Below are positions 851 to 49,559 of a DNA stretch of 64,000 bases, one piece after another; position 1 is the first letter of the stretch, and each line of letters starts with the position of its first letter. Below the pieces are notes generated by a model. That model had not been told where the DNA came from, ran no database searches, and saw only the letters and a list, made by a program, of their open reading frames with translations. The stretch covers positions 1-64,000 of the forward strand of contig JAUCBJ010002115.1 of assembly GCA_032718475.1 (NCBI GenBank), read 5' to 3'. The position numbers and the translations under genes are program-made. The stretch is from Nemertoderma westbladi (Eukaryota; Animalia; Xenacoelomorpha).

Positions 851-1085
851 AGTTTTTAATTAGTTCAAGTGATTTGCTTTAATAAATGTGTCTTTAATTG
901 ATCTAAACGTAATTAAAGCGGCACAATTATTGAGTACAAATTTAATCCTGCCCATTATTGGTCAACATAGTCTCTGCGGGGGTGTAGAGCTGCTAGCTGG
1001 CTGGGAGATGTTGGCCTTACCAGAGGCGAATTGTACTGTAATAGGCAGCCAGTAGTATTGCTATAGCAACTCAGACATAACTCGA
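850..1085. repeat. Interspersed repeat; inverted copy at ~3165-3440
   Basis: tagtttttaattagttcaagtgatttgctttaataa is the reverse complement of ttattaaagcaaatcacttgaactaattaaaaacta (~3403-3440). Confidence 0.75.
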
Positions 1086-1132
1086 TCCATACCCTGCCTG
1101 TATTTCAATTCCTATTGACTTTATACTACAAA

Positions 1133-2189
1133 TGTGGGGCGAGACACGTAGTCGGCGAGCCTTGGCATACGATTCATATAGGCCCCAACGGAGCATGTCC
1201 GTCTGTCTGTCCGTCTGTCTGGTAAATTTTTGATCGCGAATTTCTCGGCATCGCTGGTTCGGAATTGAACCAAACTTAGTAGATAAGTAGAAGAGGGAAA
1301 GTTTAGAAAATTTGTGAAGTTTGGTGAAAAATCATGCAGTCTGACGTCAGCTACGACAGATTATGTGCTTTTTACAAAATGTTAAATTTCTCAGCAATGC
1401 CTCATTTTTCAGAGCTGAAATTTTGGTTACTCGTAGATAATCATGAAGTCTATCTTTTACGAAATTGAAAAGTTAAGACAGTTAATTGGGGATCCGCTAG
1501 AAACTCGGGAATAATTGCGTAGGCCTACACCGGTACCTACAGTTAATTGCTGCTGTAATGTTCATCAGTAGTGACTACGAAATTGCAGTATAAAATTGTA
1601 ATACCTTCATTGGCCAGCTCGTTACCTCGAGCGGTGTTGGCTGAATTGATAAGGCGTTGGACTAGCCATCCAATGGGATCTTCTCGCGCTGGTTCGAATC
1701 ATATCTGTGGCAAAGCTTATTTTGCACCATTTTGTATATTAATTCTTTAAAGCCAACAATATAAACCAACTTTGTTATTATGTATGCAGTCTATTAGAAG
1801 TTTAGAAATAATCTGAGTTTTTATCAAAACAAGACTGTCTGACACTCGCTACCGGTAGTTTCAGACTTTTTATAAAAACCGAAATAAGTCGTTCAATCAA
1901 ATGATGAATTAAACCAAACTTGTACGTATGCAGTCCATTAAAAGTTTGGAAAGTATCTGAAGTTTGGTCAAAAATAAGTCAGTCGGTACCGGTGGTTTCA
2001 GACTTTTTATAAAAACCGAAATAAGTCGGGCAATTGCAGTTCAGACTTTTTATAAAAACCGAAATAAGTCGGGCAATTGCAGTTCAGACTTTTTGTAAAA
2101 ACCGAAATAAGTCGGGCAATTGCAGATTAAATTAAACCAAAATTTGTATGTATGCACTCTCGTGCTGCGCGAAGTCCCCACGAACGTGT
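1133..2189 (+). mobile_element. Non-autonomous HINE/DINE-1-like element
   Basis: Starts TGTGGGGCGAGACACG, has a (GTCY)n tract at ~1196-1220 and internal tandem repeats at 1860-2125, ends CCCCACGAACGTGT; same family as 31685-32319. Confidence 0.7.
1631..1712 (+). pseudogene. Degenerate tRNA-Ser-like sequence (SINE head or pseudo-tRNA)
   Basis: A box TGGCTGAATTG, AAGGCGTTGGACTAG..ATCCAATGGG anticodon/variable arm and B box GGTTCGAATC; acceptor stem poor. Confidence 0.55.
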
Positions 2190-3589
2190 TGTATTACTTA
2201 CTATCTCAGGTGACACGTTCGTGGGGCCTTCGCGCATCACGAGGCCCAGTTATGAGATACAAATTAAAATTGAGCGACTGTATCACAAAATCCGGTTTTG
2301 ATAAATTTACCCACACCACCAATCAATCAAAGAAAGGGGGACAGTACGTGTTCACCCCTTTTAATCTCCCCCCCCCCCCCAGCCCTTCCCAACCACCAAT
2401 ACATAACCGCGACATCTACCACCCACGGAAGGGTAGCACGAACTTATTTCCAATCGCACGTTCAATATGCAAAGCCAGGTGGTGGTTTATAGGAATATAA
2501 TAAACGCAGTACTCGTTTTCATTATAAGCATCGTTGCGTTCGTCCTGTTTTGTATTTAAATATATTTCTTAAACGCAGGCTAGGACGATCTTTATAATAA
2601 TAATAACTAGGGATGCGATCAATATGTGAAGCCAGGTGGTTTATATAATAATTTAGTAAACGCAGTACTCGTCTTTATTATATGCCTCGTTGCGCTCGTT
2701 GCTTGTCCTGTTTTGTCATAAAATATTTTTCCTAAACGCAGACTGACGATCTTTATACAGTTATAACTATGCGAAGTTTCGAAACTGTGCGAGTAACTGT
2801 TGATACATCTATGTGGAGATGTGTGATATGTGGAGATGTGTGATACAACGCCAACGCATCTTATGCCGATGTAGTAATATGGGTATTGAAATAATATTAA
2901 ATCAATGTACACTCTTAAAGCTGCAGCGAAAAAATGTAGCTAATTTCCTAGGTTACATATAAAATAATAATATTATTTTTAAGAACATTAATTTTACTAC
3001 TTTGCAAAAATTCAATTAAAAAATAACCAGACATATACATTGTGGAATAAACTATTTCAGAAGCCTACAACAGCCATGCCATGGATGGTATTTATGTTAT
3101 TATATCTGTCATTTACCTGAGATAGCAATACAACATTTATAGTGGATTTAAAGAATGCTGTCTGGGCTGGAATAGCAATACTGGTTGCCTATTACAATTC
3201 CTCTCTGGTTAGTCTACAGCCACAACTCCCAGCTAGCTCCACACCAGCAGAGACTTGACCAATAATCATTCCCAGCAACTGGCTGCCTTACACAAACATC
3301 CTTCCATCTATATACCAGCATGTTGGCCAATAAATGAGCAGTATTTTAATGAGAATCAATTTTTTATGCCGTTTAATAACTTTAGATCAATTAAAGACAC
3401 AATTATTAAAGCAAATCACTTGAACTAATTAAAAACTATAATAGAATGGAGTATGTGGATTACATCTGTATATTTTTTAAGTATAATTATTGAAGTCTTA
3501 TACTGTAAAACAATTAATTTCCTTTAAAAGGCAGGTTGAAAATGGTGTTTTTACCGTAATCAACTTAATTAACTAATTAACTGCTATTA

Positions 3590-10137: not shown

Positions 10138-10940
10138 ATGATCGCAACATTTGATGGGAATCCCAAGACAACAGTTATATGTTGCTACAGTCCAACCAAT
10201 GCATCAGAGCCAGAACAAGCAGTCAAGTTTTATGAAGAACTGACTGGACTTATTAAGGACATCCCGAAACACAATGTTAAAGTCATTGCTGGTCACCTGA
10301 AAGCGCAAATTGGCCCAGAAGACATCAAGGGTTACACCTATAACACCAGTTCTAACAGAAATGGGTACTTACTCTTAGACCTAATGGAAGAATGTGAATT
10401 GATACCAACAAACAACACATTCGAAAAGAGTAAGGGGAAGCTATGGACCTTTCAATACCCTAATGGAACCAAAGCACAACTGGATTACATCCTTATAAAC
10501 AAAAAGTGGAGAAATAGCATGATCAACTGCGAGGCATACAGCTCGTTCAACCTAATTGGTTCGGACCACAGAATTGTGACTGCAGAGATCAGACTCAGTT
10601 TGAGAGCCAGCAAACCCAGGACAAGCAAGCAAATCAACTATGACTGGGAGAAACTCAGAACTGACAATGCTGTAAAGGATGCTTATACAGTAGAAGTTCA
10701 AAACCGCTTTGAAGCACTTCAGTCAATGGATGAAGACCAATCCACCGATTCAATATACCAGAATATAATAACAGCCCACAAGGAATCAGCTAAGAGGCAT
10801 ATCCCCCAGAAACCTAAACGAAAACAGTATGTGCCATGGCAAAACTCTGAGGTTACTTGTAAGAGAGAAGATCTTAAGATAGCCTACAAAGTTAAAACCA
10901 AACAACCAACAACCGAAAACATTAACAAGGTTGAGAAAGC
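10138..10940 (+). pseudogene. RTE APE-type endonuclease C-terminal part
   Basis: CYSPTN, QLDYILIN and SDHRIV motifs. Confidence 0.9.
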
Positions 10941-12204
10941 TGTACGCGCTTTTGAAGACCTTTAGCAGTTTAACCTGCCAAAATTTATATGTCTTTTGGG
11001 TTATAGATATACTTTAGAAGATGACAAATATTTAATACCAATAAACACAACATTAGCAGAAGCCAGCCTAGTGCGCGTCCATTCACCCGCTGGATAATCC
11101 CGGGAGACTGGATTCTGAGGGCTTAAATTATTATTGCAGTGAAGCTTACGGTATTGTATTATTCGATTGATCGTTAATAATTAATTTCTGACTAATATTA
11201 TTCACTTTCGGGAAATATTAACAGTTCCTTTAGGACGTGGCGCTCTATCTAAGTAAACAGAGATATGACTTATACTAATCACAACGGTAAGTCGGTAAGG
11301 CTTAAGATTCACGTATGAGGCGCATTCTTTAGGAAATGCTTAGTTATCAGTCACAATCATGCACACTACCGGTAACACACAATACTGCTCACTAATTTGC
11401 CGACCGTCAATGAATTTTATCATATATAAAGGGAATAGCAACGGACCAATGTAGTGCTTATCAAATAGCATTAAATTCACTACAAACCACAACAATATAA
11501 GTCGCAATCGCTATATATAACCCGTCTCTCTAACCTGTAGTGTATCAAGAAAATTGGGAAATTTGGGTTCTTTATATATGTTCTCCAAATGATATTCAAC
11601 CAAAACACAACAGTAAACAGCATTAAGACGGTAAGTTAAGATATGATATGAACTGATATGGACCGATATGTGATATGAGTTGTTAAGAACTGATAACAGT
11701 CATACGCTCTATAATTTTAGCCTACTAATGTTTCTTCTATAAGTATGAAACGAATTGATTCTAGAGCTGTTGTTCCTGGCCTAGACAGCAATAACAACAA
11801 AGTATCAGTAAAAAACAGTAAGACTGAACACTCTCCTTATGATCGGCTGAAAAGCTACACGTCGACAGGAAAAATCGCTCTGATTGGCTCAAGCCAAACA
11901 AAGAACCATGCGTCCAATGGCTGTTTCCATGTCAGCAACCAGCTGTTAGATGTCGTAATATGAATCATCACGGCTAAGCTGTGAAAGGTATTTGGTGCAT
12001 TGCAGGTTTTTTGCCTTACCATGTCCGCTAAAACACGTATATAGCAGAATGACTTTTATGTCCGTTAAAACACCTGTAACGGTACCTTGCGGGCGAGGGG
12101 AATATATGTACAGTTAGAGAGCCTTTTTAGAGTATTCCAGCGCCTGGGGGGAAACTGGATTGCGAAGCAAAAGGGGCCAGTTATATCCCACAGAAGCTTT
12201 TACA
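10941..12204 (-). repeat. 3' LTR of the BEL/Pao element
   Basis: TGTACGCG...TTTTACA; about five transitions relative to the other LTR, counted by eye. Confidence 0.95.
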
Positions 12205-12213
12205 CTGCTCCCA
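12205..12213 (-). other. Short polypurine-tract-like sequence (TGGGAGCAG) before the 3' LTR
   Basis: Position immediately upstream of the 3' LTR on the coding strand. Confidence 0.5.
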
Positions 12214-12282
12214 GAAAATGGGATTTGAGTCTATAAAATATACAAAATCACAGTTTCTAATATACGTAAATACTCTAAACAG

Positions 12283-13731
12283 TTAGTCTTTCTTGCGCGG
12301 ACGGCGTTTACGCAGTTTTTTAAAGCTAGCCAGAGTCCTTTTCTCTTTGGGGCGAGCCACTTTACAAGGAGGGCTATAACTCCTGGGTGAAGGGTGCAAT
12401 ATGATTGCATCAGAGGGTGTAGGATTATGGTCGGTGTATCCGCCAGTCGAAGTACCGGGTTGATTGACATCAACGTCCGGGGAGAGGGGTCTAACGGCTT
12501 TGAGAGCTCGTTTCAAGACAGCCGCTCTTACGGGTCCTTTACGAGTGGTCTGAACGAGGGCCGTGGGTGGACCATAGGCAGTTAGAAACCTCCGGGGTTT
12601 AATGGTCCTTTCCAACTCGCGTTCGCGGGCTCGGTATTCGTAAGGCCGTCGTTTTTCTTCCTGTAACTCGGGGTGTGAGTTAACAAACAAGTCTCCATAG
12701 TCCGGATCCTGACAGATATAATTGATTAAGTTATAGGAATGAAGGTCGCTAGGATTAACACTCCTGAGAAATTTGCGTACGAATTTAGTTGAAATACATT
12801 CTCCGACGCGCTTCAGTAGTTCGTAACTCGATATGCGTGATTTCTGTTCGACAGAAGCGAATAGATAAGGATGGAACGCATAAATTCCTTCGTAAGCGCG
12901 TCCAGGATAATAACGATGGCGCGAATCACAATGTAAATCAGCGTTCGCTTCCCAAGCTCTGATGTAACGTAGTGTGATCATTTCATCTACGCTTTTCAAA
13001 TCGTGATTAAAAGGGCAATCGAAACTGGCGCGTCCCTTTAGTTGACAATGGTGACATTGAGTCATAAATTGAGGGCAAACCGCAAAAATGTGCAAGTTAT
13101 TGAGTCTGCAATACGCACAATAAATTTCCATCACCGGTTGTTCGTGGAAATAGGAACAGCGGACGTTGGTGTCCATGGGCGTAACATGGTCTCTCGATGC
13201 GCATAACCGACAACGTTGCCGAGAAACATAGTTGGCATGGCGATAATTGTACGCAGTGAGACACTGTGGACCTTGATACCATTCTAGGATGTAATCGTTG
13301 TCGCTGTTCCGGGCGCGATAGGCTGAATCTCCTCAGATTCTAGGCATATTGGTTCGTCTTCCCAGTCTGTTACGAATAGAATTTTCGTGATCTATTCTCG
13401 GTTTATCGTTCCGACTCCGCTGGGTATGATTTTTAAATAGAACCATTTCCCTTTCGGTGTCTACATCGTCCGTATCATGTAAATCGATAGGATGGCCGGT
13501 AGTTAGGAAGTCCATATACGTACTATTACGATGCGTGTAGCGAGCGGTGGATTTTCGATAGTCCAATTCACGCGCAAGTTGCTCTTGGGACATCGGCGGT
13601 TCGATATAACGACCATCGTCCTCCGTAATGGTTGGATCGGCTTCACCGCGTATTAAGCTATCCACAAATGCTTGCAAAGGTAGAGTATATCGCTCCCTAA
13701 TACCAAGATCATCTTCTATCAACTCCGTCAT
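12283..13731 (-). CDS. Extra ORF of the BEL/Pao element, ~482 codons with one in-frame TGA at 13333-13335; Cys/His motifs and basic C-terminus
   Basis: ORFs 13333-13731 and 12283-13176 share a frame, and the 52 codons between them are open (GDSAYRARNSDNDYILEWYQGPQCLTAYNYRHANYVSRQRCRLCASRDHVTP). Confidence 0.75.
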
Positions 13732-15357
13732 ATCTGCTATCTGAGTTTATAAATATCAAATGAGTTTATATTTAGGCGAGCGGGCGTCGCTGCCTACTTC
13801 TCTTTGCCCCCGGACAGTGGGATTCTCAGCGCCGATGTACCGTCGTCGCGGTGTTTACACCAACATGTAGCAACATCACGACAACGATAACCGGTACAAG
13901 TCACTCCACTGTCCGTCCCAAAGGCTTGAATCCACTTTAGGTTCTTTCTATAGGAGAGTTGGGCTACTTTCACAATTGCGACTAGCTACTGTAAACACAC
14001 CTTAGCAGTAACATTCACCTATAAACGCACAAATTCCACACAACTGTCACCAATTGTACACATACAGGCCATTTGTCCGTTAGTCAGTGCCTTCCAGAAT
14101 GTCACGTTATTACTGTGTATCCTTGGATACTAGCAGTGTGCTATATTCTCTATGCTATGCAATGGGACAAGCTTTCTATTGTTCTTTTAACTTGCTTCTA
14201 ATTCTAGCGTGGGTGTTGCTATGGTGACATTATGGAATGCTAGCGGTAGAATTAGGGTAATTCTCATGCATACAGATCTGGGATGCTATTTAATAATAAT
14301 TCTTTAATTGTCAATATCCTCTTTATGCATGATTTTATTAATTTTATTGGCTATTGACTATATGTCGGAGATTCTCGCACTCTAATACACTCAATAGGAT
14401 GAATCTCCGCTCCCATGATCTATTAATTAATGGAATTTTGGGAATGTTATAAATTGTACAAAATGACAATTTATGAAATTCATTTAAAATATGAATTTAA
14501 ATTTATTCCCGTGAATTTTATTATTTGATGTTAAAATTGACACAATTTGATTCCAGAGCAGGTCTGGGGACATAGGATCCTTAATTCTATGAAATTTGTC
14601 TTTTAAGAGTATCGGTAAGTGCTACGATATCTTAATCGACTAGAATTGTTAACGGATCTGAATTTTACAGATTTTAATAAATATTAAATTAATATTTAAG
14701 ATGGGCACCGATTTATTCCAGAACTTGTCTGGGGACGTTAACCACTGATTCTAGAATTTGTCTTTCAAGTATATCGGTGGGTGCCGCGATATCTTAATCA
14801 ACTAGAATTACAGATGGTCAAAAGGTTTAACAGATTTATTTGCGTTTTACGCTACTGTTATAGGGACATCACACTACTATATGTATTATTTAATATAAGG
14901 TAGAAGAGCAATATCGCACAAAGCAATGTCAGTGTGAAGAGGCAAGTCGTTTCCAAGGTCTACCCAGAGCTTGGTTTAGCTGAGACACGAGGATCTGAAC
15001 TTTGCATTCCTAATACTCTGCCTACCAATAATACTTGAACATAGTAGTGGCTTTATTGTACTTTAATAAGTACGGACATTTCATCTTACTGTAGTCACGT
15101 ATTTATAATATGATACGGACAGTAAGGAAAGAGAAAAAATAATTATTTCTCGCCGTCGCACTAAATATATTATAAGTAATTACGTACGTAATAAACACTA
15201 ATATATTGCACTAATCTACCAAATAATCACTAAAATAACATTCTACTAAATAAAATTAAAGGAAACGATTATAATAAAATTACATAATAATACATACATA
15301 AATATAAAATAAAAACAAATATAAAATAATGTAGTCACACGCCCACTCCATATGTTA

Positions 15358-18300
15358 TTACGTTATGGAGTCCCTAGATATTTGTCGGATTAGGGAAGTG
15401 GTCGTAGGAAGAGTATCTTGCCTTCCATAGTTTCCGGACAGTTTTCGGTCTCTTTCCAGTAAACATAAACGACTAGCTGGGCGATTTAGTTGTTGTGTTA
15501 CTTTCTCCGCTCCCTTGGCCTGTCTAATCTTCACCGGGGTAAGATGAGGAGGCCATTCTCCTTCTTCTTTACTTAAGAAGTCGGATCCACCTAACCAGCC
15601 TGGAGTATCTATCAGTTCTTGAGGAGTTGCTCCTCTGGAAGCGATGTCGGCTGGATTAATCGTCCCAAGGCAATGTCTCCATTGATCTACATTGGAGTTA
15701 ATATCGTCATTATCTGAGGAGTATGGTGTTCCCTCAGTTGGATCGTCCACATCACTGCTCTCCACTTCCCATTCCTTTACTTGGTATACCTGTTGTTGAG
15801 GTAATCTCTCTTTGAGAGTTCTACGGGAAGGGCCAGTGAAGTACCAACCTACTCTAGTTCTTACCGCATAGGTTTGTAGTGGCTGTGGTTGAGCAGGCCG
15901 TTTCTCCAATGTCTCTAGCGCCTCATGCGCGTTTTGGCCGATGAGTATTTGCACTCCAGGATAATCTGTCTGGAATCGAGGTATCTTAAGATGTTGGATG
16001 CTCTCATCCTCGTCCCAATTATAAAGGTCTGCTTGGGTAGTAGCGAAGTTCTTTATAGCCACCATTTTTACTGACCTTATACTTTGTGCTCCTAATTTAT
16101 CCTGGGGGGTGGACAACGCACCTACATAGTAATCTGCCGTTATGGTAGATTTCCAAACCTGTATAATTCCGGACATATTCAACTTAGTTTGGAATTTGGG
16201 TTGTCCAGCAAAGATATCTTCGGCTAGTTCTTGCTCGATGAATGTTCCTGTGCTGCCGGAGTCAAGGAGGGCGTTCACTATGTAACTTTTGTTGGGACCG
16301 TGAACTCTTACCTGCACTACAGGAAATTCTCTGATTCCTACGTTGGAAGTTGGAGCTTTCCAAGATGGTTGTTTGGCAAAAGTAGTTGGGGGAAACTCAT
16401 TGTTGGTGTCCTTTTCATAAGTAAGTGCTCGATACACTGAGGTATTTATTAGGTAACAGGATTCGTTGGCGTCGGAGAATTCGTCAGTATAGAATCCTTC
16501 CATCTCAGACTCTTGATCAGTGTCATTTACATCACTGAATTGGACATGTAGTTCGGGCTCACTTACCTGACTCGGGTTGTCTCGTTCGAACTCACTGTGT
16601 AACAAGATGTGATGTTTCGCGCCACACTTTGCACACTTTACGTCGGAGTAACAGGTTCGCCGTTGGTGTCCTGATCTGAGGCAATTATAGCATAACCGCT
16701 TATTCCACAGGACTGTACGTCTGTCTACAGGGGATTTCTTTAGAAATTCAGCACACGCACTCAAACGGTGGGTCCCGTCGCACAGCGCACAGTTAGGTTT
16801 TATGTTACTCACTTTACCTTGGGTAACTTGATGCACTCTCGTTTTTTCTTCGGGTTCTCTTCGGTGCATTCTGTTAGGAGACTGAGGGGGGGTCTTGGCA
16901 ACCTGTTCTCTCCTATCGTTGTTTCGAGCCTTGTATTTACTTACATCTTTTGAGGTTTTGTCAACGTAGCAAGATCTCTCAGTGTCTTTCCAGCTGTCCT
17001 CTTCTTGAGAAGCTTGGCTTTCGCCGTCGTCAGTGTAACACACCGGTGTTACTCTTCTCCTAGAAGCGGGTTTCTCACTTACCTTATTTTCCGATGTTTT
17101 CTCTCTGGACTGCTTGATGAGTTGTAGTTTTACCTCACCATCTAAGAAGGACATGAGATCAGCCATGGTAGGACTTCGTCGTTGTTGTTCATTCATGTAC
17201 AACACTTTCTTGTCCCAGCGTGTACATACTCCACCCTTTGGTAAAGTAGAGACTACTGCTCCAATAACCATTGAACTCTGATATTCATGAGACTTACCTA
17301 ACCAGTCCAATTGTCTACAGATCTCCTGAATTTCATCGGAAAACTCTATAATCCCGCTACTAAGGAAGTGTCGGGGGGCTACTAATTTTGCATACAAATA
17401 CTTAGCTATGTTATCTTTGTTACCATACCTGATGTTTAATGTATCCCAAACTTGTCTTAATCCATCTGGATGTCCAATAAACTTTAACGCCATTAACCTG
17501 GGAGGTCCTTCCAAGCACTTGATGAGGAACCTAAGTTTCTCTCCGTTAGATAGTACAGAGTTTTGTATGTTATCTTTGTAATATTCGTTGAAAGGTAGCC
17601 ATTTCATCTCATCTCCATTGAATTTAACGATCTCTCCCACTTTGACCGCTTGGCGGGCTTCTGTTCTAGCCATCTGACGCGTAAAACTTTCTTGAGCCAT
17701 CGTATTATTGAATATAGAATTATCGGTATATAAATTTCTCGGATTATGATCAGGTCTATATGGAATATTATTATCAACAGGTTTATAATTACCCTGAATA
17801 GGGTTTACTATAGGAGTTTCTACTTCACTAGCAGTATAGATGCGTGTAGGCTCCACACCTTGCGCATGAAATACTTCAGACCTAACGGGTTGACACATTG
17901 TTACAGGGGGTGGTGTTATACCCCTTTGTATGTTCACTAATTTATCGCGTTCTAACGCGATACTTTGCTGCACCTTTTGCAACTCTAACCTACTTTCCCT
18001 GACTGTTCCCTTGAGCTGCTGAACAGTCTCTTCCATTTCCCGGACCTGCTGAGAGGAGCACAAACAGTGTTCCCTCAGCTGCTCGAGCAGGAGACCCATC
18101 TCCCGTCGTCCCTCAGCTACCCACTCAACCGCCGAAGCGGGAGTCGCCAACGTAGTAGCGGGCGAGCGAGAGACGACGGGCGATAAATTCTTGATATCTC
18201 GCTCGGCGTCCAGGACGGGTTCGGACTCGGGAACAGTCCTACTGGGCACAGGTAGTTTAGTACTGTACAAAGGGAATTTATAGGCAGGTTCTGGGAGTAC

Positions 18301-18555
18301 AGGTGTCTCTATCTTTCTTTCCGCTTCTACTGTTGCCATTGCCTCTGCCGCCTTTCTTTCCGCTTCTGCTGTTGCCATTGTCTCTGCCGCCTTTCTTTCC
18401 GCTTCTGCTGTTGCCATTGCCTCTGCCGCCTTTCTTTTCGCTTCTGCTGTTGCCATTGCCTCTGCCATCTTCCTTTCAAGACCCTGTCCAAGTCTAAGAC
18501 TCATTCTAACACCTTCCAAAAGACTATCTGACAGTACCCGTTTTGTGTCAGACAT
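15358..18555 (-). CDS. gag-pro: BEL/Pao Gag-aspartic protease polyprotein (1065 aa) ending in short Pol remnants
   Basis: DUF1759-like region (KFNGDEMKW...EKLRFLIKCLEG), triple Cys/His knuckles (CALCDGTH..C, CYNC....H....C, CAKCGAKHH.LLH), protease LLDSGS, then NPADIASRG and RPASRLCLLE; no YxDD and no integrase core. Confidence 0.92.
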   Translation of the reverse strand: MSDTKRVLSDSLLEGVRMSLRLGQGLERKMAEAMATAEAKRKAAEAMATAEAERKAAETMATAEAERKAAEAMATVEAERKIETPVLPEPAYKFPLYSTKLPVPSRTVPESEPVLDAERDIKNLSPVVSRSPATTLATPASAVEWVAEGRREMGLLLEQLREHCLCSSQQVREMEETVQQLKGTVRESRLELQKVQQSIALERDKLVNIQRGITPPPVTMCQPVRSEVFHAQGVEPTRIYTASEVETPIVNPIQGNYKPVDNNIPYRPDHNPRNLYTDNSIFNNTMAQESFTRQMARTEARQAVKVGEIVKFNGDEMKWLPFNEYYKDNIQNSVLSNGEKLRFLIKCLEGPPRLMALKFIGHPDGLRQVWDTLNIRYGNKDNIAKYLYAKLVAPRHFLSSGIIEFSDEIQEICRQLDWLGKSHEYQSSMVIGAVVSTLPKGGVCTRWDKKVLYMNEQQRRSPTMADLMSFLDGEVKLQLIKQSREKTSENKVSEKPASRRRVTPVCYTDDGESQASQEEDSWKDTERSCYVDKTSKDVSKYKARNNDRREQVAKTPPQSPNRMHRREPEEKTRVHQVTQGKVSNIKPNCALCDGTHRLSACAEFLKKSPVDRRTVLWNKRLCYNCLRSGHQRRTCYSDVKCAKCGAKHHILLHSEFERDNPSQVSEPELHVQFSDVNDTDQESEMEGFYTDEFSDANESCYLINTSVYRALTYEKDTNNEFPPTTFAKQPSWKAPTSNVGIREFPVVQVRVHGPNKSYIVNALLDSGSTGTFIEQELAEDIFAGQPKFQTKLNMSGIIQVWKSTITADYYVGALSTPQDKLGAQSIRSVKMVAIKNFATTQADLYNWDEDESIQHLKIPRFQTDYPGVQILIGQNAHEALETLEKRPAQPQPLQTYAVRTRVGWYFTGPSRRTLKERLPQQQVYQVKEWEVESSDVDDPTEGTPYSSDNDDINSNVDQWRHCLGTINPADIASRGATPQELIDTPGWLGGSDFLSKEEGEWPPHLTPVKIRQAKGAEKVTQQLNRPASRLCLLERDRKLSGNYGRQDTLPTTTSLIRQISRDSIT

Positions 18556-20807
18556 TTTTGTTTGTACAGTTGAATGCCTACTGCTATATTACAGTTAAAG
18601 CAAGTCTAGTAATTCAGTATCACTGCAAGCCTAGCGATTAATTACCGATACCGTTACTCGGTGTAACGTGATATATATACAATATATTAGAATACCGGTA
18701 TGCTTATAGTATATATATAAGTATTATTACAGACTAGATTTGTCACAGAGTACCGGTATATAATTTTAGCACAAATATATATAAATATATAATAGGCCTA
18801 TCGTGAATACCGGTATGCAGCTTACACTTATAGTATATAAGTATAATTCTGGACTAGAACTAATTACAGAATACCGGTATGATTTCAGCACAAATTTATA
18901 GAAATAAATATAATAAGCCTATGGTAAATACCGGTATGTCAATTATTTTAGAATAGTTGAATTTCTGAATATTTTAGGGTTACTTGGTTACTTTAACTTA
19001 CTTTATTACCGTTATTTAAGCAGTAGTCCAACTGATATTGAGACCTAGTTGTTGTATGGCAGGCCTACTATTTATAAATCGTTTGAGTTGATTTATAATA
19101 GATATATACCCGTTTAAAATGGGTTTTGTCAATATTTGAAATAAATGTTATTATTTCTGGGGGGTGTCACTACACAGAAGCTGTGCGCTCTCAGTGAAGT
19201 GCTATTTATTGGACACTAAAACAGATAATTCTACTTCCTAAGTTACTTATCTACGAATTACTTACGATACGGGTGAGATTAATTCTCTAACTAAACACAA
19301 CAAAAATATTACGTACGAAATTTTAGGGTAATTTTACAGGGAAACTACAAACCAGTCTAACAAAGGGTTAGAACTTCTGGTTATTACAACAGACAGGATA
19401 CTACGGTATTTGAGAATAATAAAGCAGTAGTCAATATACTGCGTTGTCCAGATAGGAAAAATACCACCGCCTGACGACCTATAGCCGTATCGCTATAGGT
19501 ACTACGTTATGTATCACGGAGTGTTCCTACCTAGAAGTTAATTACCGCGGACTACCAGATCCAACGTGCTTATTAACCACTTTACAACACAATACACTGC
19601 CCACACACTAATTACCTTCGGAAAGCACTGTACACTAAACCCTAAATTAGGTACAAGTACTGGTACAACAAATAATCAGTAGTTAAATATACTTGAACAG
19701 TTAAAAGAACCACGGCATCTGCTGGAGTGACCAGAGCACAAAGTCACCAGTCTTTACCTACGCCAAGCAGCCCGTGTAGTACCGGGGTTAATTTAACTAT
19801 AACGGTATGTGTAACAAGCACAATTACTGTAGGAATAAACTTGGGGACATGAATGTAGCGAATAATCGCATAAACTCTGAATAATAAATATTACGCTACC
19901 CGTACAGAATACTCAAACAAAATACAAACCAAAACGCTGGCAGACTACCACCAAGCCTAAATAAACTACCGTACGTGTAGATTCTGAAATGGTTAGTTAG
20001 TATGCGTTCTAACACGGTAGTACGACTTATTCTTTAAGAGGGGATTGACCTTACCGCTATGGCTGCCCCAACTTACTAACGGAGCTTTATCAGACAAACT
20101 CTACACACGCAGCAATCTCTTCAGACCTAATAATAGCTAGACAACAATCCAGCCTACAAAATATCTGAGTAATAACTATTACGGTACCTGAACAGACCAC
20201 ACAAACAAACACAGGCCAAAACACTGGCAGAATACTGTCAAGCCTAAATAAACTACAGTATGTGCAGATTCCAAAACGGTTAGTTAGTATGCGTTCTAAC
20301 ACGGTAGTACGACTTATTCTTTAAGAGGGGATTGACCTTACACTCAAGTTGCCCCAACTTACTAACTGGCACTTTATTGGACAAACTTTACACACGCCGT
20401 AATCTCTCCAAACCCAACAACAATCCGACAACAGTCCGGCCTACAATTATCTGAACAATCTGAGCAGACTTACACGTCTTCAGCTCAATATTAACTTACT
20501 AGGAAATAAAACTGACAGAAATAAGTAAACTATACAAAAGAATGAGGGGTGATCAATCCCTATTCCCCTGGCAGCCTACAATATACAATAGATCACAATC
20601 GAAATAATACTAATGTACTTGTACTGGAAGTACCGGTTAGGACAGTTGGGCCTACGGACCTACAGAAGTACCGGTTCTGGCAGTTGGACCTACGGACCTA
20701 CAGCAGTACCGGTTCTGGCAGTTGGGCCTACTGACCTACAGAAGTACCGGTTCAGGTTTACCGGTTGACCGGTACTTTCAACTTTATTGCTTACTGCAAT
20801 AAAGTCA

Positions 20808-20818
20808 ATGACTGTTAT
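20808..20818 (-). other. Putative self-priming site ATAACAGTCAT at the PBS position
   Basis: Abuts the 5' LTR; no TGG; complementary to the LTR-internal 11-mer at 21571-21581 (11693-11703 in the other LTR). Confidence 0.6.
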
Positions 20819-22082
20819 TGTACGCGCTTTTGAAGACCTTTAGCAGTTTAACCTGCCAAAATTTATATGTCTTTTGGGTTATAGATATACTTTAGAAGAT
20901 GACAAATATTTAATACCAATAAACACAACATTAGCAGAAGCCAGCCTAGTGCGCGTCCATTCACCCGCTGGATAATCCCGGGAGACTGGATTCTGAGGGC
21001 TTAAATTATTATTGCAGTGAAGCTTACGGTATTGTATTATTCGATTGATCGTTAATAATTAATTTCTGACTAATATTATTCACTTTCGGGAAATATTAAC
21101 AGTTCCTTTAGGACGTGGTGCTCTATCTAAGTAAACAGAGATATGACTTATACTAATCACAACGGTAAGTCGGTAAGGCTTAAGATTCACGTATGAGGCG
21201 TATTCTTTAGGAAATGCTTAGTTATCAGTCACAATCATGCACACTACCGGTAACACACAATACTGCTCACTAATTTGCCGACCGTCAATGAATTTTATCA
21301 TATATAAAGGGAATAGCAACGGACCAATGTAGTGCTTATCAAATAGCATTAAATTCACTACAAACCACAACAATATAAGTCGCAATCGCTATATATAACC
21401 CGTCTCTCTAACCTGTAGTGTATCAAGAAAATTGGGAAATTTGGGTTCTTTATATATGTTCTCCAAATGATATTCAACCAAAACACAACAGTAAACAGCA
21501 TTAAGACGGTAAGTTAAGATATGATATGAACTGATATGGACCGATATGTGATATGAGTTGTTAAGAACTGATAACAGTCATACGCTCTATAATTTTAGCC
21601 TACTAATGTTTCTTCTATAAGTATGAAACGAATTGATTCTAGAGCCGTTGTTCCTGGCCTAGACAGCAATAACAACAAAGTATCAGTAAAAAACAGTAAG
21701 ACTGAACACTCTCCTTATGATCGGCCGAAAAGCTACACGTCGACAGGAAAAATCGCTCTGATTGGCTCAAGCCAAACAAAGAACCATGCGTCCAATGGCT
21801 GTTTCCATGTCAGCAACCAGCTGTTAGATGTCGTAATATGAATCATCACGGCTAAGCTGTGAAAGGTATTTGGTGCATTGCAGGTTTTTTGCCTTACCAT
21901 GTCCGCTAAAACACGTATATAGCAGAATGACTTTTATGTCCGTTAAAACACCTGTAACGGTACCTTGCGGGCGAGGGGAATATATGTACAGTTAGAGAAC
22001 CTTTTTAGAGTATTCCAGCGCCTGGGGGGAAACTGGATTGCGAAGCAAAAGGGGCCAGTTATATCCCACAGAAGCTTTTACA
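20819..22082 (-). repeat. 5' LTR of the BEL/Pao element
   Basis: Direct repeat of 10941-12204, offset 9878. Confidence 0.95.
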
Positions 22083-23876
22083 AAAGCTAAGGACGATCTT
22101 AAATTGGCCTACAACATCAGCCAGGAAAAGTACATACAGGATAAAACTGAAGCAATTACAACTGCTCACATACAGCAACAATCAAGACTTACCTGGCAAA
22201 CTGTAAATGAGGTATCTGGTCGGAAAAGTTGTGCAAAGGGGCGCCTCAAAGCCGATAGTCCTGAAGAACGTGTTGGGAAGTGGAAAAATCACTTCAGCAA
22301 CTTGCTTGGGCAGCCACCAAACATCGAGGTCAGCCCTACAAGGAAAATATATGACAAGACACTACCTATAGAAACAGGGGACTTCACACCTGCCGAACTC
22401 CAAAGAAGCATTAAAAGCATGTCCAATAATAAAGCGAGTGGATTAGATGAAATCCCAGCGGAGGTATGGAAAACCGGAGTGCTAAATAGACCATTATTGA
22501 ATGTTTGCAACCGGATGTTAAAAGGGGAAAAGCCACCACCAATTTGGACTAAAGGTCAACTAAAGCCTCTCCCCAAGAAAGGAGACCTCGGCATACCAAC
22601 AAACTATCGTGGGATCTGTCTGCTTGTGGTAGCTGCCAAAATATACAATAAAATGATTCTATATAGGATTAGGTCTCACATAGAGAAACTACTGCGTAAG
22701 AGCCAAAACGAATTTCGACCAAGTAGATCAACAATAGCTCAGATAGTTGCGCTACGGAGACTGATTGAAGGAATTAAGTCAAAGAATCTCCCCGCAGTCA
22801 TGACTTTTGTGGACTTCAAGAAGGCATTCGACTCCATCCATAGAGGTAAAATGCTTGAAATCCTAAGAGCTTATGTAATACCATAAGTAATTGTTGCTGG
22901 CATTGGATTGCTAAATTGTGACACAGAAGCGCAGGTACTCTCACCAGATGGTGAAACTGAGTTTTTCTCAATCCTGGCTGGCGTACTGCAAGGTGACACA
23001 TTAGCACCATTACTATTTGTAATTGTGCTGGATTACGCAATGAGGACGGCCACAAAGGGTGAAGATCTGGGATTCACACTTCAAGAACGCAGAAGTAGTA
23101 GATATCCGGCAACTACAGTCACAGACACCGACTTTGCGGATGACATCGCCCTGCTCTCTAATACACTAGCAGATGCACAGATTCTACTAAATAAAGTGGA
23201 GAGGGCTGCTAAGGAGGTTGGATTGCATATAAATGCTACCAAGACCGAATTCATGACCTTTAATGTTGATGGAAACTTGACAACCATTGATAATAATCAA
23301 CTAAGGCAGGTCGATGACTTCCAGTACCTTGGATCATGGATAGAGAGTAGCAAAAAGGACATAGAAGTTAGGAAAGCAAAGGCTTGGGTAGCTCTATCAA
23401 AAATGGATACCATCTGGAAATCAGATCTCTCCAGGCACCTGAAGACTAAGTTCTTTCGAGCCACAGTGGAAAGTGTATTTTTATACGGGGGTGAGACCTG
23501 GACACTGACTAAATCACTTGAACAACGAATTGATGGTTGCTACATAAGACTACTAAGGGCAGCCCTAAACATCAGCTGGAGACAACACATGACAAACGCC
23601 GAGCTTTATGGTACAATACCACCTGTATCAAACACCCTCCGTGAACGCAGATTAAGATTCAGTGGGCACTGCTGGCGAAGTAAAGACGAGGTCATACCAG
23701 ATCTACTTCTCTGGCAACCAACTCATGGAAAGCGTAGTCATGGACGACCTGCCATAACATATATAGATCAACTTGAAAGGGATACTGAACTTGGGAGAAA
23801 CGAAATTGCGACAACTATGGAGAATCGGGAAGCCTGGAAGGATCTCATTTCCACTGTCCGAGTTCGCTCGACCTAG
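22083..23876 (+). pseudogene. RTE reverse transcriptase; one in-frame TAA at 22884-22886
   Basis: NYRGICLL, FVDFKKAFDSI, GVLQGDTLAP, FADDIAL and YLGS motifs; ORFs 22038-22886 and 22908-23876 share one frame. Confidence 0.93.
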
Positions 23877-30706: not shown

Positions 30707-33700
30707 CTATAAAATAATACGTGTGTACTGATGACACCAAATATTAGCAGTCGAAACAAGCAAATTGTTAGAAGAAGAGATTCTTCGTAATAAACTTTGC
30801 TTATTTTTATACAGAATGTGAATGAACATTGGAAGATTAAGCTGCCCGAACATTAAAGAGATACTCGTGGGCTCATCCTCAGTAAATCGAGGTATTTTAA
30901 ATAATAGTCGCAAGCAGTTATTATAAGCCACTCTAAGTTTATTGTAGGCACTTTGTGAATAATTACTTCTAGACCATAAGCTACAACAGTATATAGGTGT
31001 ACAAAAAGCACGAAATAATAGAATTTTAACATTTGTGGATGCATTACCAAATTTCCTAAGTAGAGTGTTTGCACGTGCATATAAAGAATGAGTTTGCTTA
31101 ATTATATCACAATCATCATCAGTATTAGAGCACAGGAGATGTCCTAAGTATGAAAATCTATCTACAATATCAATGTAAGAACCGTATAATTTAATTCTGG
31201 AATAGAGTGTAACTGTGTAGGACTTGGGAATGAAATAAATACATTTACTTTTTTTAGTGTTAAATATAATAGAATTATCGAGAGCATAAGCTACAGAAAT
31301 ATTAACTAGATTTTGTAAACCATGTATTGAGTTTGAAATGAGACATAGGTCGTCCGCATATATAATGTGGTTAATTCTTGTAGAGCCTAGACAGCAACCG
31401 GTTCCGCTACTAGTTAACGCTAAGCTTAAATCATCAACATAAACGTTGTAAAATAGAGGTGATAGGATGCCACCCTGACGAGTTCCATTAGTTACATTAA
31501 ATTCGGGTGACAATATGCCATTCCAACAGACACGCAACAGTTGGTTACGGTACCAGAAATGTATAACACGCACAATATAAATAGGGACACCTCTATTAAT
31601 TAGCTTATTAAAAAGTTTGTAATGGTTGACCCTATCAAAGGCTTTTGAGGCGTCCAACATACAAACATAGATACACGAATTGTTACACGTTCGTGGGGAC
31701 TTCGCGCAGCACGTAGTCGGCAAGCCTTGGCATACGGTTCATATAGAGCAAATGGGGCATGTCTAGTTTGGACCCCATATCCCATGCTATAAATGTATTC
31801 ATTCGATATACAATCATATGTTAATCCGCTAGGTGGTGTCAAATTGTTATTCTGCAATTTCGTACTTACCAGTGCACCACTGTACAGCAGTACCGTACCG
31901 GTAGGCCTATGTCATTACTTCTGAGTCTCTAGCGGATCCCCAATTAAATGTCTTAACTTTTCAATTTCGTAAAAGATAGACTTCATGATTCTCTACAGGC
32001 CATCAAAATTTCAGCTCAGGAAAATGAGGCCTTCCCGAGAAATTTAACATTTTCTAAAAACCACATAATCTGTCGTAGCTGACGTCAGACTGCATGATTT
32101 TTCACCAAACTTTACAAACTTTCTAAACTTTCTCTCTACTACTTACCTACTAAGTTTGGTTCAATTCCGAACGAGCGATGCCGAGAAATTCGCGTTCAAA
32201 CATTTACCAGACAGACAGACGGACGGACAGACAGACAGACGGACAGACAGACGGACATGCCCCATTTGCCCTATATGAACCGTATGCAAAGGCTCGCCGA
32301 CTACGTGTCTCGCCCCACATAGGTAATAATTAATTATTTCTTTAAGAGTATATATGCATAACTCAGTTCCTGATTTAGTTTTAAATCCGAATTGGTTGCT
32401 AGTGGTAATTAAATGATCTACACATCGTTCTAGAATTACCTTCTCGACCACCTTACTAAGGATAGTTGAAAGGGCAATTCCACGATAGTTATCCTTACTG
32501 TTTAAAGCAGCGGTCCTATCTTTTACAAGTGGTATAATGGTGGAAGCCATCATTTCAGCTGGCATATAGTTGTGTGTAAACATAGCATTAATTAAAATGC
32601 AAATTGCACGAATCAAATTATAGGAGAAACCGTTGATAAAGTGTTCAGCCGTTACCTCATCAGGGCCCGATGACTTGCCAGTAGGAAGACCAAGCACTGA
32701 ATCAACAGTTTCTTTAAACGTGACATGAGAGAAATTAATATCATTATTACTGACAGATGTATTAAAAATAGATTTACCGGTGTCATCATGTACACAGTTA
32801 AATAGGTTTTTAAAATGGTTACCCCACATGGTACTGATATCATTGGAACCAATTGAATCGCCTATTTTATTGGGCAGTTTTGGCTTACAATTAGAGTGAC
32901 TTCTAACCTGAGACCAGAAGTCCTTTGACGAATCATCAGTGAGTAGTGAATTGGCCATTTTATCGGTTCTAATGGTAGCTTCACTACGTTTACACTGACG
33001 CATAGCACGCTTAAAGCGAGCTTTAGTACTTAAATATTCCTTAAAAATTTCACCCTGCCGAGGGTTTCCGCAACTTCGCCATAACTTAAAAGCAGTTCTA
33101 GACTGTCTATAATATTCTTTCACGTTGTCATTCCAACCTGGGATGTGTTGGTCTGACAACGTAGCATTACTATGTGAGTTGTTTTTGATATATGATTTAC
33201 TAGAACTAAGTAAAGTACTATTAATATTCTGGTACAATGAATCAATTTCAGCCTGATGAGAGTTACAATGCACGTTATTGCAATTGATTAGATTATTATA
33301 ATAATTGCTACTATCAAGCATATTACCAAGTGCGATATTAACATTGTCCGCATAGCCGGCAATGTTACTGGAGCTATGCTGCCAGTCGAAACGAGGTGGC
33401 ACGGGCCGATTCTCATTACTGCCAGTAGAAACCGGTACAGGCGCGACTGTACACGGAAGAGTTAAGAATATCGGCATATGGTCTGAGATAGACAGATCAT
33501 AGACAATCTTAATATCATTTATTAGATATGCACTCGAATTAGAAATTGCAACATGATCTAACCAAGAAATGGTTCCATGAGCATCGCTCACAAACGTATA
33601 AGAATCCCTGGGTAGCAAATTAACATCCGCCACTGTAATATTTACTGAATCGCACCATTGTATTAATTCGTTAAAAATAGGACGTGTAGGGTCGGCATTA

Positions 33701-34170
33701 AAATCCCCAATTATAATACAGTTTGAATATTGCTCCGTTTCTAAAAGTGAGGCCAACTTCCCAAGACATTGTCTGTACAAGTCATGGTTATCTGGGCAAT
33801 CGTATGGTAAATATATATTTATTATTAATAATTTATCGTTATTTAAGAGGTTAATCTTTGCGCCTAAAATTCGCGAATCATTAAAATCAACAATCTCAAG
33901 TGAATGCGCCATAGATTTGCGCCATAAAAATCCAAGACCACCTGCAGGCCTACCGCGAAGCAGACCGTCAGAGTAGTCGGTGGAGGAAAAGCCGCGCCCT
34001 TCAAATTCCTTATGTAGATTGTTCATTATGCCAAGTTCCTGCTTTGGGAGTTGGAGCTCTTGCAGAAGCAAGAGATCCGCGTCCCTACACAGCTCATTGA
34101 TAACAGTCCTCGAGTGAGCGTTCCGGACTGAGTTGCAGTTAAATGAAGAAATTTTTATGTTATTCGCCAT
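30707..34170 (-). pseudogene. LINE ORF2 (APE endonuclease and RT), interrupted at 31685-32319
   Basis: SFNCNS, LLQE, GDFNAD, SDHMP, NYRGIAL, QFGFK, then LDASKAFD, GTRQGGILSP, YADDLCL; frame restored when the insertion is removed. Confidence 0.92.
31685..32319 (-). mobile_element. HINE-like non-autonomous element inserted in LINE ORF2
   Basis: ~60-bp subterminal inverted repeats, (GTCY)n tract, TGTGGGG and GAACGTGT ends as at 1133-2189. Confidence 0.8.
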
Positions 34171-34267
34171 TGTTCAGAGTAATATTAAAAAGAGATATAT
34201 ACAAATTTAAATTAGAAAAATAAAAACAAAAGAAAAAAAACAACAATACACAATAAATAATCACATT

Positions 34268-35659
34268 CTATCGGGACCCTGAGTCCTCTGAATTAGCCAG
34301 AACATCATAACTGTTAGCCGTATTAGTAGGCGCAGCCGGGACAGTATTTATACCCTTAGGGGAAACCGAGACTGCACCAGTACTGCTGGTACCATCGCCT
34401 CCTAGAGAGTGTTCGAGATCGGTAACATTTGGACTTTTCGTCCTTTCGGGGAGACTCCTCCTCGGTGGGAAGTACGTGTTGATCGTCGCATTAGTAGGCC
34501 ATGTATCCGGTTCCATCAGCTTCTCCCTCTCACTGGCCATACAGGTTATAACGAATGCTGACTGACGAGCTCTCGATATCGGAGCACGTTCGCAGGTAAT
34601 ATCGAAACCGCAGCTATCCTTGATGTGTTTCGTAATAGTACTAGGTTCGACACCCTCGCAACATCCTGCAAGGTAGAGTTTCCGAGTCGGTTGGATGGTG
34701 GGAAAGGCAGTGGAGGAACTGGATCCTCTTACACACTGACTACGTCGCAATGGGCGGCGCTGATGAGAAGTCGTACCAACAGCAGTAGCGGCCAAAGCCC
34801 GAACTTGGCCGCGGCGAGGACGAGCCGGACGATGGCGACCATCCGCTCCAACTGGAATGTAATCAGAGTCGGCAGATGAGTCTCGGTTGAGCCGCAACCG
34901 AGAAATGTGTGGTGGGGTGGCCGAAGCGGCAGCCAGTCGACTGGTACTGGCAGCGACTTCTGCCCAAGGCCTAGTTGAGGCGCTACTAGGCAGTCGGTTA
35001 TTGCCAGGTGGCGGAGCAGGATCCGTAGATGCCGGTACCTGTACAACTTCCCGTGCCTGTCTCGATTCAGACAGATTCTGACAGGACCTATTCCTAATCG
35101 TATTCGTATCAGGTAGAACACCAGTAGGCCTACCGGTAGTGGAATCACCAGAAGTAACTGTGGTTGTGGGTCTGTTGCTGTTCCTAACAACATTATCAGC
35201 ATTATTTTGGAGATTGACACAGACAGATTCAACTACTGCTAACCTGTCCTGTAGCATACTGACCGACCTGAGCAGTAGAGCGACGCCGGCATCGCACAGC
35301 GAGAAAGGAGGGAGAATAGTGAGATCCTTAGGAACAAATTCCTTGCAGGTTGAGGGTTCATTCTGAAGATCGATATAAGCAGGGTAGTCAAAGACATCCA
35401 ACATGTCTACGACTAAATTATGGCGCAGAGAATTACCATTGCACCGTTTAGTCCAGAACGACTGCTTATGAGCGTCCCTATCTGAGCTGGGAAGGAGACC
35501 CAGCAACAGCTGTTTGGATTCTCTTAACATGTCGTCCGTAAACTTAGGCCACGGTTGAACCGTTTCTACGATACCATCTCTGTGAAATCCCTTAATATGG
35601 GACGACCAAAGATAAGCCAATATATCATTCCTGATATGGCAGCAGTTGGATGCCGCCAT
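34268..35659 (-). CDS. LINE ORF1 (probable start MAASNC)
   Basis: Long ORF upstream of ORF2; RRM-like C-terminal region (RKLYLAG...SAFVI....LMEPDTWP). Confidence 0.8.
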   Translation of the reverse strand: MAASNCCHIRNDILAYLWSSHIKGFHRDGIVETVQPWPKFTDDMLRESKQLLLGLLPSSDRDAHKQSFWTKRCNGNSLRHNLVVDMLDVFDYPAYIDLQNEPSTCKEFVPKDLTILPPFSLCDAGVALLLRSVSMLQDRLAVVESVCVNLQNNADNVVRNSNRPTTTVTSGDSTTGRPTGVLPDTNTIRNRSCQNLSESRQAREVVQVPASTDPAPPPGNNRLPSSASTRPWAEVAASTSRLAAASATPPHISRLRLNRDSSADSDYIPVGADGRHRPARPRRGQVRALAATAVGTTSHQRRPLRRSQCVRGSSSSTAFPTIQPTRKLYLAGCCEGVEPSTITKHIKDSCGFDITCERAPISRARQSAFVITCMASEREKLMEPDTWPTNATINTYFPPRRSLPERTKSPNVTDLEHSLGGDGTSSTGAVSVSPKGINTVPAAPTNTANSYDVLANSEDSGSR

Positions 35660-36004
35660 CCTCCAAGATCCTCCAAGAGTTGTCAATCGTTGACGTATAT
35701 GCGTTACCACAAGCAATGGGCAGTAGAGTTCGGAGTTAGACCGGACCGGTAAGCCGGTCTGCCGGTTTTAGTGAGGAGTACAGTTCAGCAGTTCAGCAGT
35801 TAGTACAGATATATATAATCTCCAAAAACTATGTTCACTTTCAGGGTAGTATTGGCAGTTCCTTTCAGATGCTGCGCTTTAAATAAGTGCTCGATAATTC
35901 ATGCCACTGTTGTTACTGGGCTGAATATCATCAGACAAAGTGTTAAATCACCCTAATTTAAACATTCGCTGATCATGTTCTATCAATAACATTGTTATTG
36001 TTTC

Positions 36005-41090: not shown

Positions 41091-41174
41091 ACAAAGTTCA
41101 GTAATGAAATGTATGGCTGAAACCATAATACATTGATACGTTGTTTACTATCCGATTGCGATAAGGTCCTATAA

Positions 41175-47100: not shown

Positions 47101-47486
47101 GTCCTGCCTTGCTGCCTTCCAATAAGGTAGAAGCAGCAGATATCCCGCTCATACAATCACAGACACCGACTTAGCCGATGATATCGTCCTGCCTTGCTGC
47201 CTTCCAATAAGGTAGAAGCAGCAGATATCCCGCTCATACAATCACAGACACCGACTTAGCCAATGATATCATCCTGCCTTGCTGCCTTCCAATAAGGTAG
47301 AAGCAGCAGATATCCCGCTCATACAATCACAGACACCGACTTAGCCGATGATATCGTCCTGCCTTGCTGCCTTCCAATAAGGTAGAAGCAGCAGATATCC
47401 CGCTCATACAATCACAGACACCGACTTAGCCAACGATATCGTCCTGCCTTGCTGCCTTCCAATAAGGTAGAAGCAGCAGATATCCC
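41175..47486. repeat. 85-bp satellite array, ~74 copies
   Basis: Unit AATAAGGTAGAAGCAGCAGATATCCCGCTCATACAATCACAGACACCGACTTAGCCAACGATATCGTCCTGCCTTGCTGCCTTCC; period confirmed at 44401/44486/44571. Confidence 0.98.
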
Positions 47487-48796: not shown

Positions 48797-49524
48797 CAGT
48801 ACCAGTCCGGTACAGTACAGTACCAGTACCGGTCCGGTACAGTACCAGTACGGGTCCGGTACAGTACAGTACCAGTACAGGTCCGGTACAGTACAGTACC
48901 AGTACGGGTCCTGTACAGTACCAGTACGGGTCTGGTACAGTACAGTACCGGTCCGGTCCGGTACAGTACCAGTACCGGTCCTGTACAGTACAGTACAGTA
49001 CCAGTACGGGTCCGGTACAGTACCAGTACGGGTCCGGTACAGTACAGTACCGGTCCTGTCCGGTACAGTACCAGTACCGGTCCGGTACAGTACAGTACCA
49101 GTACCGGTCCGGTACAATGCCAGTACGGGTCCGGTACAGTACCAGTACGGGTCCAGTACAGTACCAGTACCGGTCTGGTACAGTACAGTACGGGTCCGGT
49201 ACAGTACCAGTACGGGTCCGGTACAGTACCAGTACGGGTCCGGTACAGTACAGTACCGGTCCGGTCCGGTACAGTACCGGTCCGGTACAGTACAGTACCA
49301 GTACGGGTCCGGTACAGTACCAGTACGGGTCCGGTACAGTACAGTACCGGTCCGGTCCGGTACAGTACCAGTACCGGTCCGGTACAGTACAGTACCTGTT
49401 TTGAATTTCCCCCTTACATCCGTATCACTGTACCTCATTGTATAAATCAGATTTGGTGATAGGGTGTAATAGTGCAATTTGAAATCCATTGTATCAACTA
49501 TGTTATTATACTATCATTCTCACC

Positions 49525-49559
<35 letters not shown>

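Follow-up and report, generated by a model that had tools for sequence, protein, structure and literature searches.

Results

Architecture of the element

The window analysed here comprises 64,000 nucleotides of contig JAUCBJ010002115.1 from Nemertoderma westbladi, and positions 10941-22082 on its minus strand are occupied by an LTR element of 11,142 bp. The 5′ LTR (20819..22082, minus strand) and the 3′ LTR (10941..12204, minus strand) both measure 1264 bp, run from TG to CA and are 99.6% identical, with 5 differences between them, and the element is bordered by two copies of a 5-bp target-site duplication (22083..22087 and 10936-10940), which reads GCTTT on the element strand and AAAGC on the plus strand. 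Directly adjacent lies a LINE whose RT frame (Pfam RVT_1) carries on to the right of the element; by the duplication, the element would sit inside this LINE. LTR identity and intact duplication together imply that a copy with the primer site described below was reverse transcribed recently, and the insertion is judged from them to be young.

The coding part is an open frame at 15358..18555 (minus strand), containing gag (DUF1759, Cys-His boxes), an aspartic protease (LLDSGS) and an in-frame remnant of RNase H. The gag domain PF03564 is matched in this frame at E 3e-12, PF05380 or PF03564 is found in 19 of 20 homologues, the remaining one having no domain listed, and a BEL/Pao polyprotein profile matches the gag-protease part at E 9e-74. 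The membership in BEL/Pao that a first-pass annotation of this DNA had assigned is borne out by gag, protease and RNase H remnant, together with the paired LTRs and the 5-bp duplication. That annotation made no mention that integrase, RT and most of RNase H are lacking. When a profile built from 17 full polyproteins is aligned to the element, only positions 20-734 and 1285-1340 match, in agreement with tblastn; the second interval represents the final ~55 RNase H residues (E 2e-12), and profile positions 735-1284 and 1341-1860, with RT, most of RNase H and integrase, are unmatched in six frames. The complete PR-RT-RH-IN order of pol, the mark of autonomous BEL/Pao elements, is not found. The element is a BEL/Pao deletion derivative in which gag-protease is fused to an RNase H remnant; with RT and integrase absent it is non-autonomous, and with RT and RNase H lost it would by itself be unable to cut or extend a primer.

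A short purine-rich tract, GGGAGCAG (12205..12212, minus strand), lies directly before the 3′ LTR; many of the metagenome loci introduced below (L001-L078) share the tract GGGGCCGG at this place, where the element has only GGGAGCAG. Downstream of the pol remnant, an extra reading frame (12283..13746, minus strand) comprises 137 + 349 codons in one frame with one stop between them; it is rich in Cys and His, which form three knuckle-like clusters, and has a basic end, and neither a Pfam family nor a homologue was found for it in protein searches. In the leader, an ACCGGT-rich unit of 38 bp is repeated 3.3 times (20627-20753, minus strand), and none of 200 shuffles folds as well as the region 20700-20830 (z -3.7). 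Additional repeats are present at 19876-20459 (287 bp x2), at 18710-18938 (121 bp x1.9) and, within gag, at 18313-18477 (39 bp x4.2).

Elsewhere in the window, LINE-type pieces were observed at 21996-23876 (plus strand, RT split by a stop), at 30707-35767 (minus strand, RT and endonuclease frames preceded by a frame of 499 aa) and at 57524-58498 (plus strand, a further weak RT). An 85-bp unit repeated 74 times, with 96% matching, forms a satellite across 41167-47486, and complex arrays of CAGTAC and CCGGT units occupy 48797-49678.

Self-complementarity at the primer site

The 5′ LTR, read on the minus strand, ends in CGCGTACA and is followed directly by ATAACAGTCAT (20808..20818, minus strand), which takes the position of the primer-binding site, abuts the LTR and contains no TGG. 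As had been claimed in the first-pass annotation, TGG is missing after the 5′ LTR, none being present between 14 nt before and 236 nt after the junction, and an ordinary tRNA 3′ end is therefore excluded as the primer. The annotation had also reported an exact 11-nt complement inside the LTR, and we find the same: the candidate self-primer ATGACTGTTAT (21571..21581, minus strand) matches the site perfectly, ends in A-T followed by C, and is present once in the LTR, and its Watson-Crick pairing with the site halts at 11 nt. A second copy of the 11-mer lies in the 3′ LTR at 11703-11693 (minus strand), a position derived from the 9878-base offset.

A chance of 1 in 1000-3000 had been proposed for this match; its rarity stands, with the figure shifted to about 1 in 700-2100 here. 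A first-order Markov estimate gives 1 in 1298, whereas empirically an 11/11 match is met in 1 in 694-2151, since an LTR match was obtained for 4 of 8604 internal 11-mers, for 64 of 105696 outside 11-mers and, with the site start allowed 0-5 nt after the LTR, for 12 of 8327 windows. None of 400 internal control windows scored as well as the element's site, which reaches 11 against its own LTR and at most 8 against 12 other LTRs.

We also considered whether the LTR itself is tRNA-derived sequence, which was ruled out by ARAGORN and Rfam searches without match. A different explanation would be priming by a fragment from a host tRNA, cleaved within the anticodon arm, or by another small host RNA, with an incidental LTR match. 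The stretch CTGTTA of the candidate primer presumably resembles the anticodon loop of tRNA-Asn(GUU), which we count for such a fragment. Half-tRNA priming exists in copia, Ty5, Osser and Bianca and needs no TGG, but in the available text of a plant survey such primers are confined to Ty1/copia lineages (PMC6317226). No tRNA gene was returned for the LTR by ARAGORN, no hit by Rfam, and no tRNA was found in the 64-kb window; the self-match is exact as well as rare, and eight primers of relatives, described below, each track their own LTR. We regard priming by a tRNA fragment or another small host RNA as very improbable.

Around the two pairing partners, local structure is predicted as well. A 13-bp hairpin with a 5-nt loop (20778..20808, minus strand) begins at the site's final base, and folding of 20770-20830 yields z = -3.2 with 0 of 200 shuffles as good, while a weak local hairpin at 21583-21551 (z -1.5) overlaps the 11-mer. 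The only AATAAA/ATTAAA hexamer on the LTR coding strand is ATTAAA at 20909..20914 (minus strand), 96 nt before the LTR end; the 11-mer is 752 nt away from the LTR end and 656 nt upstream of this sole poly(A)-like hexamer.

Relatives and family coverage

Close relatives were sought by homologue searches and in representative proteins, viral contigs and prokaryote genomes, and none above about 37% protein identity was found, the identities being 23-37% among the 150 best representatives listed. Eight 16-mer matches in viral contigs were rejected as chance, reaching at most 20 bases on extension, with no BEL/Pao protein encoded. An alignment of 17 full polyproteins led to 78 metagenome loci (L001-L078), drawn from the best 80 of at least 522 confirmed stretches. 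From these, 12 families were counted in which the 5′ LTR end could be read where two repeats part, independent of pairing; loci without a repeat-defined LTR end were left out of this count. RT-RNase H identity among the 12 families is 48-68%, and gag-protease identity between metagenome families and the element is about 20-30%. In a quick ML tree of 64 rows and 1625 columns, of which the element fills 31%, all locus rows fall into a 42-row clade and the element stands outside it on a long branch in the best tree; constraining the element into this clade was not rejected (AU p 0.23).

For the element's own family, contigs of run X1 cover 30 of 30 bins of 12300-22200 with many diverged copies and 932 differences, which, judging from these matches, shows that the family exists and says nothing on the structure of its members. 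Over 21470-21700 there is a single contig, on 21643-21700, so that 21470-21642 is uncovered and no contig spans the 11-mer. It was additionally observed that X1 contigs skip 158 bases (20874-21033) and 267 bases (21109-21377) and that one leaves the LTR at 21643; the joints skipping 158 and 267 nt suggest an LTR that is mosaic or length-variable within the family.

Self-pairing in distant BEL/Pao families

Pairing of the primer site with the own LTR over 10-15 nt was found in 11 of 12 families (L003, L010, L020, L023, L026, L031, L035, L042, L051, L061, L065), being contiguous in two of them and formed only across a GT-AG exon-exon junction in the other nine. A first pass over 13 loci gave 10-15 nt, matched by none of 400 controls, for L003, L010, L026, L029 (the same family as L026), L031, L035, L051 and L061, and pairing with 1 of 400 controls as good for L042; it missed L062, L065, L023 and L018, whose LTR ends at the contig edge. 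L020, L023, with its LTR end moved by 10 nt, and L065, with one G-U pair allowed, were scored in a second pass only, at 11-12 nt and with 0 of 60 controls as good. L062 misses with the donor filter and reaches 10 nt with any GT (1 of 60 controls). The first-pass annotation had held that relatives with a TGG-type site would speak against self-priming: such a site is absent in 11 of 12 families and present in L062, which has TGG at +1. As an observation on this family (L062 53-76, L063 63-88), it is the only one with TGG after the LTR, and it also gives a 10-nt spliced self-match ending in AAC with a weak donor.

One primer is common to four families, leaving 8 different primers in total. Only 13 of 156 off-diagonal pairings in the cross table of primers reach 10, and 12 of these 13 occur among the four primer-sharing families. 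For the covariation proposed earlier as a check, distant families offer 8 different primers that each track their own LTR; the element's own family is uncovered at 21470-21642 in run X1. As far as such comparisons go, the relatives show the signature, whose end motif they define, to be common in BEL/Pao; covariation for the element's own family is not supplied by them.

Aligned from their 3′ ends, the primers of 12 elements, including this one, show C-G or T-A at position 1 and A-T at position 2 in 12 of 12, with L061 offset by one base, and pairing is kept at positions 3-10 although these vary. In the element and in 9 of 11 relatives, C follows the primer. Given this end motif, we weighed the possibility that the 11-mer match is due to chance and that the true primer site of a defective element has decayed. 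Very many windows were examined, so that a match of 1 in 1000 is expected somewhere, and the element is indeed defective and without a close relative among those found. However, the match begins exactly at the LTR end and carries the A-pyrimidine-C end of the relatives, which is found at only 2.5% of LTR positions as background; a TGG-free self-match is the rule among the examined BEL/Pao families (11 of 12), and the young insertion implies a site in working order recently. Coincidence is accordingly given very little weight.

The position of the pairing bears on a further alternative, namely a structural or regulatory role for it (in packaging, dimerisation or translational switching), with something else, for example the 13-bp hairpin, serving as primer. 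A strong hairpin does follow the site directly, the weak hairpin at 21583-21551 could hide the 11-mer, and for the fungal GalEa a hairpin has been proposed in place of a primer site in the accessible part of PMC6934838. Yet pairing begins 0-5 nt beyond the LTR end in 12 of the 13 elements tested, at the point where the 3′ end of a primer has to lie for the LTR to acquire its end, and the terminal bases of the paired stretch are conserved, making a purely structural role very unlikely in our estimation.

Several traits separate the relatives from the element. The spacer from LTR end to site is 0 nt in the element versus 2-5 nt in relatives; the primer lies 62-278 nt from the LTR end in 8 relatives and 11-128 nt from the poly(A) hexamer. 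The relatives also show a second helix on the 5′ side of the primer, with a combined p of 4e-6 over 11 families that are not independent. Nine families (L010, L023, L026, L031, L035, L042, L051, L061, L065) have a predicted LTR intron of 76-409 nt, with donors such as GTAAGT and pyrimidine-rich acceptors, the removal of which would create the 11-15 nt that pair with the site. When LTR ends were sought by complementarity itself, at least 11 nt were obtained in 23 of 46 loci; lacking a control, these are leads only and, apart from L020 and L023, where repeats define the ends, were kept out of the count of 11 in 12. The idea that relatives carry a second, decoy copy of their site in U5 was rejected (combined p 0.54 over 13 loci). 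L012 (1-15890) holds tandem BEL/Pao copies with a period of 6138 bp that apparently share LTRs, possibly an assembly effect.

RNA start

The promoter motifs named in the first-pass annotation are placed correctly, with TATAGAA at -38 (21619), CCAAT at -184 (21765) and ATTGG at -215 (21796) relative to 21581. The TATA-like TATAGAAG (21612..21619, minus strand) is non-canonical and putative, and its AG is also a possible splice acceptor. In an alternative promoter reading (21701..21796, minus strand), ATTGG at 21796 and CCAAT at 21765 would serve an initiator-like TCAGT with its A at 21703. By the usual spacing of TATA boxes, TATAGAAG at -38 is 7-10 nt too far and points further upstream than 21581, and by that of CCAAT boxes the distances of 62 and 93 nt to TCAGT at 21703 fit better than 21581.

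Pairing between site and 11-mer was predicted from equilibrium folds of 800-1100 nt, which are weak evidence and depend on the segment folded. For an RNA starting at 21581 the values are 0.83, 0.83, 0.10, 0.25 and 0.84 with five different 3′ cut-offs; they are 0-0.33 for a start at 21590 and 0 for a start at 21703. A second helix 5′ of the 11-mer is not significant in the element, 21% of LTR 14-mers being as good. The strongest pairing from 21581 and the missing second helix favour a start at 21581. Among relatives, a TATA-like box 25-40 nt upstream of the paired segment was found in 0 of 8, and TATATAG was located at -64 (L020), -49 (L059) and -55 (L072), the ends of the last two coming from the uncontrolled scan. 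In the relatives, the pairing segment appears, from these positions, to lie inside the RNA and not at its 5′ end. A start far from 21581, which the first-pass annotation took as refuting its proposal, would consequently be compatible with self-priming. Within the self-priming reading, we lean slightly towards the 11-mer as the 5′ terminus of the RNA, the Tf1 arrangement, and consider it nearly as probable that a longer fragment has the 11-mer at its 3′ end, the arrangement suggested by the relatives. For Tf2, the choice of start site determines whether the self-primer is present, according to the available text of PMC5341516, and several starts may therefore coexist.

Candidate splicing in the LTR

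A splice-built primer was also sought in the element and rejected: the sole candidate cut, 21575-21413, gives 10 nt, uses the donor GTTATC and is lost under donor filters. The acceptor at 21413 is good, the donor within the 11-mer is far from consensus, and the 11-mer is contiguous and not assembled at a junction. This cut is perhaps a relic of an intron-split primer, or chance. Donor-like sites on the minus strand of the LTR were noted at 21603, 21583, 21897, 21270 and 21027. Splicing of 21583 or 21603 to 21413 would remove the 11-mer, and a switch between priming-competent and other RNA is possible on this basis.

Discussion

Proposed mode of priming

In this study, we explored the primer site of a defective BEL/Pao element together with those of distant families. 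We propose, with fair confidence, that the element primes minus-strand DNA from its own RNA instead of a tRNA. RNA 21581-21571, from the 5′ or the 3′ LTR copy, would pair with 20818-20808 and would be cut just 3′ of the final AU, as in Tf1, with the RT/RNase H probably supplied by an autonomous partner family, whereupon the freed 3′ end of the primer would be extended into U5 and R by the RT of that partner. Since RT is absent in this copy, both cutting and extension would take place in trans. Self-priming in BEL/Pao, as first suggested from this single locus, is strengthened by self-pairing in 11 of 12 distant families and by the shared A-pyrimidine end; for the element itself we infer it.

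A wider proposal, which we advance tentatively and would rate somewhat below even, holds that much of BEL/Pao is tRNA-free and self-primed, with a conserved A-pyrimidine cut and mostly spliced primers, and that the element represents a deep intron-less branch which converged on Tf1 in its 11-nt 5′-end primer, its ATAAC site and its dependence on a trans partner.

Priming is the first committed step in the replication of LTR retroelements. If true, self-priming in a third superfamily would point to repeated origins of tRNA independence, would be expected to account for the many BEL/Pao elements that are given no primer site by annotation tools, and would let BEL/Pao escape silencing by 3′ tRNA fragments, while splice-assembled primers would tie replication to host splicing. 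The A-pyrimidine end shared by Tf1 and BEL/Pao primers constitutes a testable rule for the cutting enzyme. The single copy is a defective example, and the weight lies with the cross-family pattern, above all with the splice-built primers.

No self-priming BEL/Pao was found in the literature searched, a scope that leaves most subscription journals and Repbase reports outside, nor in the accessible parts of PMC13524379, PMC4600332, PMC8220671, PMC3601003, PMC554778, PMC4580426, PMC3286476, PMC9873768 and the other papers cited here. The available text of the BEL/Pao survey PMC3118150 holds no mention that we found of PBS, primer or tRNA, and that of the Sinbad paper none of PBS or tRNA. What is described here is likely, as judged from the sequence comparisons, a known mechanism in a superfamily where no description was found, and a prior mention is possible.

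Comparison with known systems

Tf1 and Tf2 of Schizosaccharomyces pombe, Tj1 and the Tf1/sushi elements likewise lack a tRNA site and have a site that pairs with RNA derived from their own LTR. To our knowledge, self-priming has been demonstrated for Tf1 only, the cases of Tf1/sushi, Tcn1 and TAR being predictions. The Tf1 self-primer is 11 nt long, equal to the length of the match in the element. The two further share the ATAAC start of the site, as given for Tf1 in the available text of PMC11042837. The proteins differ, being those of Ty3/gypsy chromoviruses in Tf1/sushi and a BEL/Pao gag with an RNase H remnant, without RT and integrase, in the element; the 5′-terminal primer is a feature of Tf1 and only a candidate position here. 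Tf1 RNA forms a three-duplex 'pretzel', and cleavage of its self-primer requires the RNase H of RT, as stated in the accessible portions of bioRxiv 10.1101/2022.12.06.519325 and, for the cleavage, also of PMC5341516. A corresponding 'pretzel' is not clearly present in the element, where the leader folds on itself: a 10-bp pairing with 21018-21009 or 21497-21488 is possible, but the local 13-bp hairpin is preferred, and none of the 25 best helices (at least 7 bp) includes the last U5 bases.

For Tcn1 chromoviruses and the plant TAR elements (Houba, Osr-1) of Ty1/copia, self-priming has been predicted from complementarity between LTR and site (PMC6317226, in the text available), in other superfamilies and hosts than here; with self-priming proposed in these two superfamilies, BEL/Pao would be the third. 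Achilles of the olive fly belongs to the same BEL/Pao superfamily as the element, but is tRNA-primed. A further comparison is with the undescribed metagenome BEL/Pao families, which, like the element, have a TGG-free self-pairing site and an A-pyrimidine primer end, mostly followed by C, and which, unlike the element, have an intron-built primer in 9 of 11, a spacer of 2-5 nt, a primer near the poly(A) hexamer and a second helix.
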